DNA of 40,914 bases, taken from positions 1 through 40,914 of the IMG/VR virus record IMGVR_UViG_3300017700_000575. The stretch is one strand, 5' to 3'. The translations under genes were made by a program, and so were the position numbers. The notes beneath the pieces are model-generated. The model had not been told where the DNA came from, ran no database searches, and saw only the letters and a program-made list of their open reading frames with translations. Below are positions 6,020-19,664 of this stretch, piece by piece (position 1 is the first letter of the stretch; each line of letters begins with the position of its first letter). Origin of the DNA: a virus. Taxonomy: Duplodnaviria; Caudoviricetes.

Positions 6020-6570
6020 GTGCCGGGTGTCGTGCGGTCGCCATTTCTTCGCCCGGGCGTGTTCGTCGTTGTCTGCGCGATCATCTGTTGGCCTCCTGTC
6101 AGTATTTTATGGGCGTTTACGCTGGCATAGCAGATGGAAACGCGGGTTTGCTAAACCGTTAATGGGGGTAAACCCCATTCGAGGGTTCGAATCCCTTCCT
6201 CTCCGCCATTTCTGCATTATACGTCCGTCCCCTCTGGGGGAACAGCCGAAAAACCAGATATACTTGTGCCGGGTTTTGTGCCGCCCAGTCTCATGGCGCG
6301 CTGTTTCTCTTCGGGCGTCAGGTACTTCAAATACACTTCGGTTGTCTTGATGGAGGCGTGCCCAAGTATGCCCTGCAGGTCATAGATGTAGCCGCCGCGC
6401 CGGAGGAACATGACGGCGAAGTAATGCCGTAGATCATGGAACCGGAAGCGCACCCCCTCCCGCACACGCCATGCCCGGAAGTTGGCGGCAAAATTGGCAT
6501 AGGGATGTCCGTCGCCGTGCCAGAACACGAGGGCGCTTGTGCTGTGCCGAGGTGTGCCGGCTAATGTGCC
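6019..6570. promoter_or_regulatory. Putative integrase arm-type sites (TGTGCC pairs spaced 12 bp)
   Basis: TGTGCC at 6019 (with CGTGCG at 6031), 6265/6277 and 6543/6553/6565, flanking the core. Confidence 0.55.
6145..6208 (+). mobile_element. attP core: 3' portion of tRNA-Ser(GCT) from the anticodon loop to CCA
   Basis: GGT-TTGCTAA-ACC anticodon loop, long variable arm, GGTTCGAATCC, CTCTCCGCCA end; no 5' acceptor/D arm; adjacent to the int stop. Confidence 0.9.
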
Positions 6571-12205: not shown

Positions 12206-12358
12206 TCACAGCGGCCATCCGCCGGGCATCAGCCGGGCCACGATGTCGAGCAGGCCCCACAGGGCGAACGGCGACAGGATCAGGATGGTTATGGAGAGGC
12301 GCTGGGCCTGCTTGCGGAGGCGGGCATTCTCGCAGCAGAGGAAGGTGCGGGGGCTCAT
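12206..12358 (-). CDS. Small membrane protein (50 aa, MSPRTFLCCENARLRKQAQRLSITILILSPFALWGLL...)
   Basis: Not in the ORF track; ATGA overlap with the methyltransferase stop; TM segment. Confidence 0.55.
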   Translation of the reverse strand: MSPRTFLCCENARLRKQAQRLSITILILSPFALWGLLDIVARLMPGGWPL

Positions 12359-13128
12359 GCGTCACCGTTGGTCGCGGTGATCAGGCAGGCCGATACTTCG
12401 GTGCCGGATTCCGAGAAGGTCCCGGATGGCAGGTCCTCGACCTCCGCGCCGATCTCGCGCAGCCACCCCTGAAAGGCGCGCTCCTCCTTCGACTGATTAA
12501 CCAGTGCGCCGTGGTCGCAGATCGCCACCAGCGAGCCGCCTTCGCGCAGCCATCCCCATGCTTGCTGGATGTGTCGGATGGCCTGCTTGCCGGTGAACGG
12601 CGGATTCATCATGACGATGTCGAAGGGCGCGGAATGCTCCGGCAGTGTCAGGAAGTCCGCCCTCAGCACGTTAGTTGCTGGCAGCAGATCGTGCAGGAAA
12701 GGGATATTCGCGTCCCATATCTCGATGGCCCAGACCTGCGCGCCAGCATCGAGGCAAGGCCTAACGAGACGACCGCTGCCGGCGCTGGGCTCCAGCACCT
12801 TGTCGCCAGCAGAGACATTGACCCGCCGAACCATCTCCGCGGCCAGCGGCTCCGGCGTCTCGAAGAACTGATACTTGGTCTTCAGGTTCTCGACGGCGCC
12901 AGCCTGGACGCCACCGCGCAGTAACGCGGTCGGATCGGAGACGAAGACGTGCCCACCCTTGTGACGGTTCCACTTGCCGCCCAACGCTGTCAGCGCCTTG
13001 TTGACCTTCTCGTAGACGGGGCGGGCGAGCTGGCCGGGTGGCAGTTTTGCGACGGTGCCGTCGATCGACATGCCGGCAAGGATGGTGCGCGTCTCGTCGT
13101 CGAGAGCGATGGAGGCGCGCCCGCTCAC
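12355..13128 (-). CDS. SAM-dependent (probably N6-adenine DNA) methyltransferase
   Basis: QFFETP, VLEPSAGSG (motif I), MMNPPF (motif IV), LP.GTF.ESGT. Confidence 0.88.
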   Translation of the reverse strand: MSGRASIALDDETRTILAGMSIDGTVAKLPPGQLARPVYEKVNKALTALGGKWNRHKGGHVFVSDPTALLRGGVQAGAVENLKTKYQFFETPEPLAAEMVRRVNVSAGDKVLEPSAGSGRLVRPCLDAGAQVWAIEIWDANIPFLHDLLPATNVLRADFLTLPEHSAPFDIVMMNPPFTGKQAIRHIQQAWGWLREGGSLVAICDHGALVNQSKEERAFQGWLREIGAEVEDLPSGTFSESGTEVSACLITATNGDA

Positions 13129-14699: not shown

Positions 14700-14963
14700 T
14701 TACTTGATAATCCGTAGTCGGCGGGAGGGCTCTGCCCCGTAGATCCAGTACTCAACTGGGCGCGCCAGAAGGATCGATAACGCGGGGAGCAAGTGCAATG
14801 GAAACGCGGAACCAGGCCGGTTTTCATATTTCTTATAAGTGGTTTTCTTCAAACCTAAACTGAGAGCGAGCTGCTCCTGAGACAGGCCGCGTTCTTTCCG
14901 GGCGGCCCGTAGGCGCTCCTGGAATTCCCGATTGAATGTGGCCTCGTCCTTTGAGGGGTCCAT
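14700..14963 (-). CDS. CI-like XRE-family repressor, HTH only
   Basis: RLRAARKERGLSQEQLA..LG....TY.KYE; divergent from the cro-like gene. Confidence 0.85.
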   Translation of the reverse strand: MDPSKDEATFNREFQERLRAARKERGLSQEQLALSLGLKKTTYKKYENRPGSAFPLHLLPALSILLARPVEYWIYGAEPSRRLRIIK

Positions 14964-16042: not shown

Positions 16043-16618
16043 ATGCGCTCCGACGATCCCATTCTGCACCCCGACCTGATCCGTGCGCCTGAGCCCGACG
16101 TGCTGGGCATCGTGACCGAAGCGCGAGAGCGCCGGAACACGTTCGAGAAGTTCGTCGAGCGCCGCGTGACGCAGATCATTGAATCCAACGCCTTTCGTCT
16201 GCAGGTGACCCGCCTGGTCGATCAGAAGCTTCAGGAGGAGGTGGATGCCATCGTGGCGCGCCGAACCCGCGAGAGTGTGAAGGAGATCGAAGCGTTGCGG
16301 CCGGCAGACGGGCCGACTGTGCTGGGAATCCTCAATGCTGTCGCCGGCGTCACGGGCTTCACCTGTGCCGAGCTTACTGGTCCGCGCCGCGCCCGTCGTG
16401 TCGCTAGAGCGCGCCAGCTCGCCTATCACCTTCTCCGCGTCCTGCGTCCCGATTTGAGCCTGCCGATGATCGGCCGCGCGATCGGCAACCGTGACCACAC
16501 TTCGATCATGCACGGACTCCGGGTTGTAGCCTCCCATCGTGAGGCCCAACCGCTCAAGGCATGGCTCGCTCACCCCGCGATCGCGAAGCTGATGGAAAAA
16601 GGGAGCGCGCCTTCATGA
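16043..16618 (+). CDS. Protein with a DnaA C-terminal (domain IV-like) HTH
   Basis: RR..VARARQLAY.L.R.....SLP.IGR..G.RDHTSIMHG. Confidence 0.85.
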   Translation: MRSDDPILHPDLIRAPEPDVLGIVTEARERRNTFEKFVERRVTQIIESNAFRLQVTRLVDQKLQEEVDAIVARRTRESVKEIEALRPADGPTVLGILNAVAGVTGFTCAELTGPRRARRVARARQLAYHLLRVLRPDLSLPMIGRAIGNRDHTSIMHGLRVVASHREAQPLKAWLAHPAIAKLMEKGSAPS

Positions 16619-16773: not shown

Positions 16774-16846
16774 GCTGGGCGCTGCGATTTCCGCGCACCC
16801 GGAATTTCTCTGAGCCGTCAGCCTGGCAGCGAGCCGGCTCAGGACT

Positions 16847-17359
16847 TTGCCAATCGGTCTCCACGTCTCTTCGGTGATGGGCTTCGTCATGCCCAGCACT
16901 GTGGAGAGGTTCATGACCGAGTTTCAGAACAAGCGTCCCGCGTCCAAGGAGAGTTCTTCCGCCATGCCGGCAATTGTCAGGGCGAATGAAATGTTTCGTG
17001 CCGTCTGCGGTCAACGCGGATGGAACGACACCCGTGAAAGCTGGATCGCGCGCGGCGCGGCCCGGTGCCGCCTCACTGTCCGCCGTGCGCGGGCCATCGT
17101 CTACCAAGAACCAATAAGGCTATCGGCCGATGAATACGTCGCCATCCAGACCGCCTTCGACGAGTTCAACCTCAAGCTTCAAAGGACCGATGCGGCTTTG
17201 GCGGCGGTTTCAAGTCTGGCGGGGAATGCGCCTGCTGAAGCGAGCCGACCAGATGTTGGATGCGGCCGGGTTCATGACGGCGCGCGCACTCGAGTTGAAG
17301 CGGGAAGCCGCCCGGCTGATCGGGAAGAACACCCAGGCGCCAAGTACTTTGCTGGATAG
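16847..17359 (+). CDS. Putative CII-like regulatory protein (start uncertain)
   Basis: W....ESWIARGAAR..LT.RRARAIVYQE HTH-like segment at the CII position. Confidence 0.55.
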   Translation: MPIGLHVSSVMGFVMPSTVERFMTEFQNKRPASKESSSAMPAIVRANEMFRAVCGQRGWNDTRESWIARGAARCRLTVRRARAIVYQEPIRLSADEYVAIQTAFDEFNLKLQRTDAALAAVSSLAGNAPAEASRPDVGCGRVHDGARTRVEAGSRPADREEHPGAKYFAG

Positions 17360-17374
17360 AGCGGGAGACGACCG

Positions 17375-18145
17375 ATGATCAAAGCTGGCCCCATCACGCT
17401 CAAGACGCACCTCAAGGGCCTTATCGAGGAACTGGAGGCATCGGATGACCGGATCGCCTCGGAGCGCGAACTGCAGAAGGCCGCGCTGGACGCCTCGAAG
17501 GAGGCCCACGGCACCGAGGCCGCCAGTGTCCGCAGATTGGTCAGCCTGCGCCGCAAGATCGCCAAGGATCCGGCAGAGGCGCGGCGGATCGAGGAAATCG
17601 ATGACCAGTACCGTTTCCTGGTCGAAGGCGGAGACCGGCCGGCGCACGCGCCCGAGGTCATGGACGAACTGAGCCGGGTTCTGGCGCTCACCAACACGTC
17701 GAAGCCGCCCAAGATCGAGGCCATCAAGAAGGCTCTCGGGTGCAGCCAGGGAAAGGCGCACAAACTGCGCTCGCTGGCTGCGGCGCGTCTGGCGAGCGGC
17801 GCGCGGGAAAGTTCAAGTTCATCGACCCCGCGTGAACATGAACATTTGGCCCCGCACGATGCAGACGGTGTTGTGCAGGAGGAGGTGGAGCGGAGCGAGG
17901 GAATCGAACCCGTCGTCATTGGTTTGGAAGACCAAAGCTCTGCCATTGAGCTAGCCCCGCAGCGCGCAGAGCCTACCACAGACGACGCTTCCCCTCCATC
18001 CGTTTTCACGGGTGAAAGGAGCGCGCCGGCACCGATCGGAGGGACGTCGGGCGGCACACCTTCAGACGACTGGGACGCCATAGCCCGCGAGCAGGCCGCC
18101 CTGAACGAGGCTCGCCGTCGTCGTCTTGCACAGGTGCCGGCATGA
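17375..18145 (+). CDS. GapR/DUF2312-like nucleoid-associated protein with HTH-like middle and low-complexity tail
   Basis: LKGLIEELE...VRRLVSLRRK..DPAE.....DQY resembles GapR. Confidence 0.6.
   Translation: MIKAGPITLKTHLKGLIEELEASDDRIASERELQKAALDASKEAHGTEAASVRRLVSLRRKIAKDPAEARRIEEIDDQYRFLVEGGDRPAHAPEVMDELSRVLALTNTSKPPKIEAIKKALGCSQGKAHKLRSLAAARLASGARESSSSSTPREHEHLAPHDADGVVQEEVERSEGIEPVVIGLEDQSSAIELAPQRAEPTTDDASPPSVFTGERSAPAPIGGTSGGTPSDDWDAIAREQAALNEARRRRLAQVPA
17886..17960 (-). tRNA. tRNA-Gly(UCC)-like sequence, antisense within the CDS, with a 1-nt T-stem bulge
   Basis: GCGGGGC TA GCTC AATGGCA GAGC T TTGGT CTTCCAA ACCAA TGAC GA(C)GGG TTCGATT CCCTC GCTCCGC T CCA. Confidence 0.75.
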
Positions 18146-18288
18146 CCGTTCGCTCACAACTCGCTCGGCTTCGCAGAGAGCACGCCAAGGCTTTCAGGCT
18201 TTGGAAGGCTACGCGCTCCCCCAGGTACTGGAAGGCGCTTCGTGACCTGACAACGGCCATCGTGGCGCTGACTGGTCGGCCCGCATGA
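18142..18288 (+). CDS. Small basic protein (48 aa)
   Basis: ATGA-coupled on both sides. Confidence 0.55.
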   Translation: MTVRSQLARLRREHAKAFRLWKATRSPRYWKALRDLTTAIVALTGRPA

Positions 18289-18614
18289 AGCCCCGCTCGA
18301 AATATCGCAACGTGCCGACCGTCGTTGACGGCGTGCGGTTCGCGTCGAAGGCAGAGGCCGTCCGCGACTACGAACTCCACATGCTTGAGCGGGCTGGCAA
18401 GATCCGCAACGTGAAGCGCCAGCCTCGCTACCCTCTCTACGTCGAGGGCAAGCTGATCACGACCTACGTTGCCGACTGGTGCTACCAGGAGGTCACGCAG
18501 GACGGCCCTGTCTACGTCACCGAGGACCGCAAGGGCGTTCTCACCCCCGCCTTCAAGATCAAGTGGGCACTCGCGAAAGCCCTCCATCCAGAGATCGAGT
18601 GGAGGCTGTCATGA
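18285..18614 (+). CDS. DUF1064-family PD-(D/E)xK nuclease/resolvase
   Basis: SKY.N..TVVDG.RF.SK.EA; QP.Y; YVAD..Y; EDRKG. Confidence 0.85.
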   Translation: MKPRSKYRNVPTVVDGVRFASKAEAVRDYELHMLERAGKIRNVKRQPRYPLYVEGKLITTYVADWCYQEVTQDGPVYVTEDRKGVLTPAFKIKWALAKALHPEIEWRLS

Positions 18615-18741: not shown

Positions 18742-19113
18742 ATGACTGCCCAACCCTTTACCACGAATCCGTCCGTGCTTCGCGCCCTCGCAGATAGATG
18801 CGAGCGGGAGGAGCCGAGCGACAAACTGGACGCCGCGATCGCGCGGGCTGTGCTGGGCCCAAACCGCTATGTCCTGCCCTACACCACCTCCCTCGACGCT
18901 GCCGTAACGCTCGTGCCGGAAGGGTGGTGCATCGACTCTCTGGGTGACGAGGGAACTTACGGCGACGCCCAACGGTTCGAAATCACTGGATGCTCTGTCC
19001 GCCTGTCAGATGGATTTTCCGAGTCATCCTTTGGGGAGGCGAGTTCCCGGGCCGCAGCGATCTGCGCCGCTTCTCTCCGTGCTCTCGCTCTCCTCGCAGA
19101 AGGTGAAGCATGA
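18742..19113 (+). CDS. Phage ABA-sandwich/NinX-like protein
   Basis: LDAAIA...PYTTSLDAA.TLVPEGW...A.AICAA.LRA. Confidence 0.7.
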   Translation: MTAQPFTTNPSVLRALADRCEREEPSDKLDAAIARAVLGPNRYVLPYTTSLDAAVTLVPEGWCIDSLGDEGTYGDAQRFEITGCSVRLSDGFSESSFGEASSRAAAICAASLRALALLAEGEA

Positions 19114-19120
19114 GAGGGGA

Positions 19121-19160
19121 GTTCGCCCGCCAAGAGGCGGGCCTGTGTATTCCTAATTTT
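19121..19160 (+). repeat. Junction motif B, copy 3 (GTTC-hairpin-CTGTGTATTCCTAATTTT)
   Basis: Same layout as 5361-5397 and 7492-7530. Confidence 0.75.
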
Positions 19161-19229
19161 ACTGCACAGGAAGCATCACCGACCCGACGTACGATCGCAG
19201 CATCGCCCAACCGCGCAGTGCTGGGCGGG

Positions 19230-19664
19230 ATGCGCGCGAAGAACAACGGGCGCTACAACGGCAACGGCCGGCACTGGCAGACGCCACCCGAGGTGTTCGA
19301 CCCGCTCGAGCGTGAGTTCGCCTTCACGCTAGATCCCTGCTGCACCGTCGAGTCGGCAAAGTGCCCGAAATTCTACACCGAGGCAGAGGACGGCTTGGCG
19401 CAGGATTGGCGCGGCGAGCGGGTGTTCATGAATCCGCCCTATGGCCGGGAAATCTACGACTGGACGCGCAAGGCGCGCACGTCCGGCGCTCTGGTGGTCG
19501 GCCTGCTGCCCGCGTCCTGTGACCTGAAATGGTGGCACGATGACGTCGTGGGCCATGCCGAGGTCCGATACATCCGCGGCCGCGTGCGCTTCCTCACGGG
19601 CGGTCCCTACCGTGCGTCCGGCTTCTTCGCGAGCGTCATCGTCATTTGGAGGGGCGGGGCATGA
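19230..19664 (+). CDS. Phage N6-adenine DNA methyltransferase (phage Dam family)
   Basis: W.TP..F..L..EF.FTLDPC; EDGL.QDW; VFMNPPY; IRGR.RF; start may lie upstream at 19110. Confidence 0.88.
   Translation: MRAKNNGRYNGNGRHWQTPPEVFDPLEREFAFTLDPCCTVESAKCPKFYTEAEDGLAQDWRGERVFMNPPYGREIYDWTRKARTSGALVVGLLPASCDLKWWHDDVVGHAEVRYIRGRVRFLTGGPYRASGFFASVIVIWRGGA

Follow-up and report, generated by a model that had tools for sequence, protein, structure and literature searches.

A tRNA-Gly(UCC) gene lies antisense within the predicted linker region of a remotely GapR-like gene of a temperate phage

The window, i.e., the whole stretch of DNA analyzed here, is a complete virus record of 40,914 bp with direct terminal repeats. 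Because it encodes an integrase, a terminase, a portal protein, and a major head protein (Pfam and PHROG profile matches), as well as a repressor-like helix-turn-helix (HTH) protein whose gene (14700-14963) lies upstream of the tRNA-bearing open reading frame (ORF), it is read here as the genome of a temperate tailed phage. The host likely belongs to the Reyranella family; a homolog of the tRNA-bearing gene is found in a Reyranella MAG, and an integrase homolog (53%) in a member of that family (G130) adjoins a tRNA-Ser(GCU) gene, the 3' part of which recurs on the plus strand of the window at 6145-6208, beside the integrase gene. The variable arm of this attP-like tRNA-Ser(GCU) part is unlike that of the host-family copy. 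Two DNA methyltransferase-like genes, 12355-13128 on the minus strand and 19110-19664 on the plus strand, are also present in this temperate phage of only 41 kb.

The gene that carries the tRNA is a 256-codon ORF on the plus strand (17375-18145), which overlaps its neighbors through ATGA at both ends. In an AlphaFold prediction made with a 37-sequence alignment, its product consists of a helical N-terminal domain (amino acids [aa] 9-84; 17399-17626; pLDDT of 88-98 over aa 11-80), an HTH-like domain, where conservation across the family is highest (aa 93-146; 17651-17812), a disordered linker that holds the tRNA (aa 147-229; 17813-18061), and a C-terminal helix past the tRNA codons (aa 230-252; 18062-18130; pLDDT of 80-91). 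The linker is delimited by pLDDT values, which are below 50 over most of aa 172-228, the tRNA codons included, by GC3 (0.48-0.65, as against 0.82-0.85 in the domains), and by the lengths of the family tails, which vary between 52 and 256 aa and are assembled, mosaic-like, from recurring motifs. A minus-strand ORF at 17272-18081 has no Pfam or PHROG match and was taken as a shadow frame rather than a gene.

The initial annotation called this ORF GapR-like, a designation that holds up as a remote profile similarity: hhalign comparison with PF10073-positive proteins gives a probability of 99.4 (E value of 1.1e-21) over 161 columns, including the shared HTH, and the protein matches phrog_639 with an E value of 2.9e-5. 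It does not extend to formal membership in the Pfam family, as there is no PF10073 match at E ≤ 0.01 in the window protein and a single one among the 37 family members (1/37; E value of 0.0034), while the match to PF11126 (T4 DsbA; E value of 0.0078) is below the cut-off. Thus, the protein shares with the GapR-like (PF10073) and DsbA (PF11126) proteins a predicted helical N-terminal domain, remotely similar to both, and has profile similarity to PF10073-positive phage proteins but differs from them in scoring below the Pfam cut-offs and in carrying, as a fusion, an HTH plus a linker that is long and variable. A Foldseek search of the predicted structure against the PDB returned no match at E ≤ 0.001. 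Judging from the PHROG, AlphaFold, and hhalign results, the protein looks DNA-binding, and no functional tie between it and the tRNA was found.

At the boundary of the HTH and the linker, there is an in-frame inverted repeat, GTTCAnGTTCA...TGAACnTGAAC (17811-17843; coding for SSSS..EHEH), which is unique in the genome and is a possible binding site of the protein on its own gene. A repeated or inverted in-frame pentamer directly after the HTH is seen in the window and in L001-L003, L006, L025, L026, L029, L030, L033, L035, L038, L041, L054, and L059, and it varies with the HTH subtype (GTTCA, TTTCA, GTCCC, or GGTCC/GTCCA). At the other end of the protein, many homologs terminate in a motif like DLxIPxFLRR, which we take to resemble the C-terminal peptide of alphaproteobacterial FtsZ; the window protein has the helical end instead.

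The minus strand opposite the linker encodes a tRNA-Gly(UCC) of 75 nt (17886-17960), with the anticodon at 17928-17926 and an encoded CCA. This observation of the initial annotation is confirmed, and the element is real: ARAGORN calls a single tRNA in the entire window, which is this Gly(UCC) tRNA on the minus strand; the Rfam family RF00005 matches it with 56.3 bits (gathering score, 29; E value of 1.2e-9); and its minimum-energy fold is the cloverleaf, but with a z score of only -1.46. The details described earlier are all found on the minus strand from 17960 to 17886, namely, a 7-bp acceptor stem with one G.U pair (G5.U68), a GG in the D-loop, a fully paired (5/5) anticodon stem, the UCC anticodon, a UUCGAUU T-loop, U73, and the CCA end. 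The glycine identity set comprises G1-C72, C2-G71, U73, and C35/C36; the tRNA has the first three elements, as had been pointed out, and C35/C36 too. A regular 5-bp T-stem is absent, since a single extra C, at 17912, bulges from its 5' strand and brings the total to 75 nt; in the Rfam alignment, it appears as an insertion. Immediately before the tRNA, at 17878-17887 on the plus strand, we noted AGGAGGAGGTG, which can be read as a strong Shine-Dalgarno sequence in the plus direction and, in that of the tRNA, as an anti-Shine-Dalgarno-like trailer; a 14-nt copy is found at 16232-16245.

As claimed initially, the plus strand is open across the tRNA: the frame 17375-18145 is uninterrupted and yields VERSEGIEPVVIGLEDQSSAIELAP. 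At the sequence level, dual coding is borne out, as the ORF runs past the tRNA to the predicted C-terminal helix, which is identical in 12 of 25 positions to the end of P0040, a relative without the tRNA peptide, and is coupled to the next ORF through ATGA. The concern that the protein might really end upstream of the tRNA is countered by this relative-like C terminus and the coupled stop, and we infer that the full 256-aa product is translated. The length of 75 nt does equal 25 codons, as had been stressed, but the tRNA begins at codon position 2 and is not in phase with them. At least one stop-free antisense frame is found in 51 of the 64 distinct tRNAs of the loci examined, so that an open frame across a tRNA is by itself unremarkable.

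The extra T-stem base is common to phage-type homologs of this tRNA. A pattern requiring it matched 10 metagenome and 2 viral stretches; the set of bulged tRNAs leaves out the window itself (L022) and the duplicates of L010 (L015 and L024), and the L023 tRNA is the same as that of L014. L013 (Met) and the Glu-type L018 and L020 were dropped, as they have ordinary 5-nt variable loops. There are six tRNA-Gly(UCC) loci with 6 nucleotides facing 5 in the T-stem, with the bulged base being C, as in the window, in L017 and L019 and A in L010, L014/L023, L016, and L021. The closest homolog is that of L017, which stands alone ahead of phage-family genes; TATAAT lies 8 nt upstream of it, and a run of T follows downstream. 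The tRNAs of L016, L019, and L021 are found in tRNA clusters, which in L016 and L021 are ordinary multi-tRNA arrays; the L019 tRNA has A73, no encoded CCA, and TATAAATA just upstream. Because the same extra base occurs in homologs outside this gene, the idea that the extra C serves to keep the frame falls, and the length of 75 nt is best seen as a precondition that passed the frame filter, not as an adaptation to it. In L010, the tRNA lies antisense in a lysis region, overlapping the 5' end of a 139-codon open frame (L010:1976-2395, plus strand) that comes after a spanin-like gene and ends in a lipobox-like peptide; this is a possible fourth case of an embedded tRNA.

The tRNA-Gly(UCC) of the likely host family is a regular 74-mer without the T-stem bulge. 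The window tRNA reaches no more than 79% identity with the host-family copies and differs from them in 4 of the 5 anticodon-stem pairs, and it has the same 7-nt anticodon loop, CUUCCAA, as all 12 of the loci read from this presumed host family. Searches by other means gave no matches to the exact 25-nt tRNA pattern in viral contigs, no match with tblastn against GenBank phages, and only generic tRNA matches with blastn.

Among the 41 proteins found for the family, 36 are close homologs, and none of these has the tRNA peptide, including one that is 78% identical to the window protein over the folded part. The antisense peptide of the tRNA is found, with 24 of 25 residues identical, in two distant GapR-family proteins, P0039 and P0041, which were retrieved via this peptide and whose parts preceding it are 30 to 31% identical to the window protein. 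In both, it is preceded by the protein's own HTH region and followed by a C terminus of the family type. Conservation among the three carriers stops at the first base of the tRNA on its 5' side and about 3 codons past the CCA on its 3' side, and in P0039 and P0041, the peptides upstream of the tRNA are different. Two distantly related phage genes appear to harbor the same tRNA, with its pairing in P0039 and P0041 read from their peptides. Two further peptide searches revealed no other embedded copy; P0042 and P0043 proved to be shadow ORFs of free tRNAs, and P0044 is unrelated. Of 335 viral GapR loci, the best 80 were scanned with ARAGORN; they contain 19 distinct ORFs of more than 110 aa, and in none of the 80 does a tRNA lie inside the ORF. 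A genome scan with the peptide from the HTH to the tRNA gave one true relative, L006, among the matches listed (L007 is a spurious match), and a single-protein scan of viral contigs found nothing. As neither the 36 close homologs nor these 80 best viral loci carry it, the embedded tRNA would be rare and dispensable for the family, and it is a sporadic and apparently mobile cassette.

Comparison of homologs had been proposed at the outset as a check for the insert and for compensatory changes, and its outcome is divided: the insert is absent from 36 of 36 close homologs, whereas compensatory changes are seen relative to the L017 tRNA. These two tRNAs differ at 5 positions, all of them in stems, and no pair is broken; there are two double compensatory changes and one change from G-C to G.U. 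Under random placement of the differences, the probability that all fall in stems and remain paired is 5.5e-5 to 3.3e-3, and under the weaker null, which asks just that all pairs be kept, it is 0.05 to 0.23. In an alignment of 9 distinct tRNAs of the lineage, 3 of which are canonical 74-mers, 96.8% of the cells are paired and 11 of the 21 pairs have two-sided changes, a level reached in none of 500 shuffles, a control that is inflated by the relatedness of the sequences. This shows structural selection on the tRNA lineage as a whole, not on the embedded copy in particular. At the second position of the anticodon stem, C is seen or implied in P0039, P0041, L010, and L017, in contrast to the U-A pair of the window; provided that there was a single capture event, this double change of the window would have arisen while the tRNA was embedded. 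Since P0039 and P0041 are known as peptides only, the compensatory changes are not placeable on the embedded branch.

A candidate promoter for the tRNA is the extended -10 element TGTG-G-TAGGCT on the minus strand (17970-17980), which has a weak -35. The core of this element, TG-G-TAGGCT at 17978-17970, was spotted in the initial annotation, and it indeed lies 9 nt upstream of G1 and is rarer there than expected by chance: TGnTAnnnT occurs at 13 sites on both strands of the genome (P of ~0.002 for a 10-position window), and the plain TAnnnT occurs at 202 sites (P = 0.024). Because of the weak -35, the candidate was not called by a sigma-70 scan that requires this element. Among five homologs examined, three have no TAnnnT within 80 nt upstream. 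Transcription starts ~7 nt downstream of a -10, which would leave a leader of ~3 nt. In predicted precursors with leaders of up to 10 nt, the acceptor stem is kept (mean pair probability of 0.57 to 0.99); with an 18-nt leader, the result is mixed (0.03 without the trailer and 0.9 with it), and a 30-nt leader abolishes the stem (0.0). Between the tRNA and position 13000, no minus-strand terminator was called except the D-arm itself. The sequencing-run search listed no RNA run containing the stretch, a result that has no bearing on expression.

The closest precedent for this arrangement is the reversed selC gene inside selB of Shewanella and Ferrimonas (Mukai 2021, PMC8124441), where a reversed tRNA gene also lies within a protein-coding gene and has its promoter in the coding sequence. 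The hallmarks of such nesting, an entire tRNA within an uninterrupted ORF and an ORF that continues past it, are both found in the window. Unlike the selB/selC pair, however, it pairs a phage gene with a tRNA for a standard amino acid, and no functional link of this tRNA to the encoded protein was found; the tRNA occupies an internal linker, whereas selC lies in a C-terminal extension; and its occurrence is sporadic, with the tRNA apparently shuffled between divergent genes and with other cargo in the same slot of relatives. The arrangement is not a member of the selB/selC system, and its overlap is not conserved across a clade (it is found in 0 of 36 close homologs and in two distant GapR proteins). 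With respect to its possible role, the window tRNA resembles the counter-defense tRNAs described in PMC10264068 and PMC11559606 in being phage-borne and unlike the host isoacceptor. The former describes loop-mutated phage tRNAs as counter-defense (van den Berg 2023), and the latter cites the action of T5 tRNAs against Retron and PARIS. In contrast to those of PMC10264068, the window tRNA has an anticodon loop unchanged from that of the likely host and, therefore, does not fit the loop-mutation model as given there. It also differs from the counter-defense tRNAs covered in these papers in being the only tRNA of a temperate phage, hidden in a gene rather than placed in a cluster, and in being known from sequence alone. 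Our survey of an open-access library found no paper on tRNA genes embedded in the coding sequences of phages or on a T-stem-bulged phage tRNA-Gly.

The reading that we prefer, tentatively and as a slightly less than even call, is that of an expressed spare tRNA-Gly directed against host defenses that target tRNAs. A phage-type tRNA-Gly would have been captured by recombination into a linker that tolerates any stop-free, frame-keeping insert. It would be transcribed from the adjacent extended -10 with the short leader, matured by host enzymes through RNase P cleavage and 3' trimming, and charged by the host GlyRS via G1-C72, C2-G71, U73, and the C35/C36 anticodon. When defenses deplete the host tRNA, it could add to the pool or escape by virtue of its stem and T-arm differences; the peptide encoded by the 75 nt would be a passenger. 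According to PMC11559606, the toxSAS FaRel2 targets tRNA-Gly, and phages use isoacceptors against tRNA-targeting defenses. The FaRel2 determinants listed there (1-72, 2-71, 4-69, and Pu5-Py68) are all present in the window tRNA, which would, therefore, have no obvious resistance and constitute an extra substrate for this type of toxin. The initial suggestion of a replacement against anticodon nucleases is weakened by the 7-nt anticodon loop being the same as in the tRNA-Gly(UCC) of the likely host. The T-stem region is read by EF-Tu, and the bulge may impair decoding.

It is also conceivable, if somewhat unlikely, that the tRNA is an inert passenger, a recently captured gene, still intact, that is carried along by a tolerant linker without useful expression. 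Its absence from all 36 close homologs, the sharing of mosaic linker modules by divergent genes, the near-identity of the three carriers, which may reflect recent exchange, and the usual openness of antisense tRNA frames (51 of 64) are what such a passenger would leave behind; the end of conservation at the 5' boundary and ~3 codons past the 3' end, the lack of any broken pair relative to L017, and a rare extended -10 at the right distance are not. We consider it rather improbable that the tRNA is expressed as a non-elongator, with the bulge weakening EF-Tu binding and the molecule serving either to divert acceptor-end toxins, as a decoy, or to donate glycine to a transferase. The 6-versus-5 T-stem of six other phage-type loci, absent from the 74-nt host tRNA-Gly, and the retention of the FaRel2 determinants agree with such a role, as does the existence in Staphylococcus aureus of a non-proteinogenic tRNA-Gly(UCC) with weak EF-Tu binding (PMC4574755). 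The S. aureus tRNA has the same anticodon and likewise an odd feature in the arm contacted by EF-Tu, but the window tRNA, unlike that species as described there, keeps G18/G19 intact, and its oddity is a bulge. Another user of Gly-tRNA is reported to be Mom of phage Mu (PMC13219725); however, no match to the Mom family (PF25680) is found in the complete window genome or in the two viral records that contain homologs, and there is no acyl-transferase match among the 90 ORFs scanned against Pfam. The placement of L016 and L021 in ordinary multi-tRNA arrays also speaks against a non-elongator.

The suggestion that the minus-strand transcript, or the act of transcribing it, damps the rightward early operon was made in the initial annotation and is left without positive support. 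The candidate promoter does oppose this operon, downstream of the repressor gene, with no called terminator down to position 13000 save the D-arm, and Mukai proposed mutual antisense action for the reversed selC in selB (PMC8124441). However, the tRNA is located ~510 nt into the ORF, still ~180 nt short of the next start, covers no ribosome-binding site, keeps its structure and identity elements as expected of a tRNA, and has free-standing homologs, which makes an antisense regulator very unlikely. Harder still to credit is codon compensation, i.e., decoding of GGA for phage genes in a GC-rich host. GGA accounts for 11.8% of the Gly codons in 36 phage ORFs and for 4.5% in 73 host-family ORFs, a 2.5-fold gap that is inflated by the filtering of the host set for GC3 > 0.8; yet it ranks only 11th among the enriched codons, within a general shift to A/T-ending ones, the major capsid gene uses it in 0 of 34 Gly codons, and the host family owns a tRNA-Gly(UCC). 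An attachment-site remnant or an assembly artifact can be rejected with near certainty. The phage is temperate and has an integrase, but its attP-like sequence is the tRNA-Ser(GCU) part at 6145-6208, which matches G130, so that the Gly tRNA, with its 79% identity at best to host-family copies, is not an att remnant. As for an artifact, there is an identical contig, and unrelated records contain the extra base as well. This Logan contig of run X1 corresponds to positions 16800-18600 without a single difference or gap, at a depth of 67.5, and X1 is possibly the source of the window DNA, so that the agreement is not independent. The other tRNA contigs of the X1 comparison are one base short at 17912/17913, and runs X2 to X4 match only pieces of the stretch.

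In relatives of the window gene, the linker appears to behave as a cargo slot, with its DNA carrying information beyond the peptide that it encodes. Divergent genes share tail modules, such as an SVGA-type motif (13 of 41 tails) and RVA (20 of 41). The linker of L003 holds a complete nested gene in the +1 frame (L003:238-453, plus strand, inside the host ORF L003:3-611) with an AAGGAG ribosome-binding site; as its product exceeds the cut-off of 27 for the PF24729 Acb2/Tad1 hairpin family with 36.4 bits, cargo of the anti-defense type does occur in this slot. The tails of L030, L035, L006, and L002 contain RNA-like sense-strand modules of ~90 to 105 nt, each enclosed by a TGCGG...CCGCA stem whose outer pairs covary (folding z scores of -2.9, -4.2, -2.5, and -1.1, respectively); no Rfam match to such modules was found in the two loci scanned, L002 and L012, and a matching ESCG-type peptide is present in 11 of 41 tails, compared to 0.05 in shuffles. 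Relaxed ARAGORN matches (ps80-95) in the tails of relatives were treated as noise.

Our most speculative proposal, less probable than the spare-tRNA reading, is that the GapR-HTH linker of alphaproteobacterial phages may be a fixed in-frame bay in which anti-defense modules are swapped while the host gene stays unbroken, with the bulged tRNA-Gly lineage being a working counter-defense tRNA tuned away from the host form. As only one nested protein gene is shown on DNA, the notion of an anti-defense cargo bay has two examples, one of them the tRNA. The linker slot would also be a place to look for new anti-defense genes, as the Acb2/Tad1-family gene of L003 suggests. Should the tRNA be expressed, it would show that temperate phages of small size are able to carry counter-defense RNAs without lengthening their genomes. 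When a predicted tRNA falls within a coding sequence, gene callers regard the pair as conflicting and generally keep a single feature, so that nested tRNA genes would be missed in phage annotation. The recurring T-stem bulge, in turn, poses a question on the recognition of tRNA-Gly by EF-Tu and by toxins.

Several tails have additional peculiarities. That of P0032 contains a probable translation of a sense-strand tRNA (27.3 bits; 1 of 820 shuffles scored as high), a possible second tRNA nested in the family. The tails of P0013, P0016, and P0026 have GGE[HD] motifs followed by out-of-frame-looking text, compatible with further nested genes with a ribosome-binding site and ATG. Finally, antisense TGCTACGCG, which corresponds to the RVA codons, is conserved near the end of the linker in L001, L003, L029, L033, L038, L041, L043, and L059, where it might represent part of a leftward promoter or else a site for a protein.
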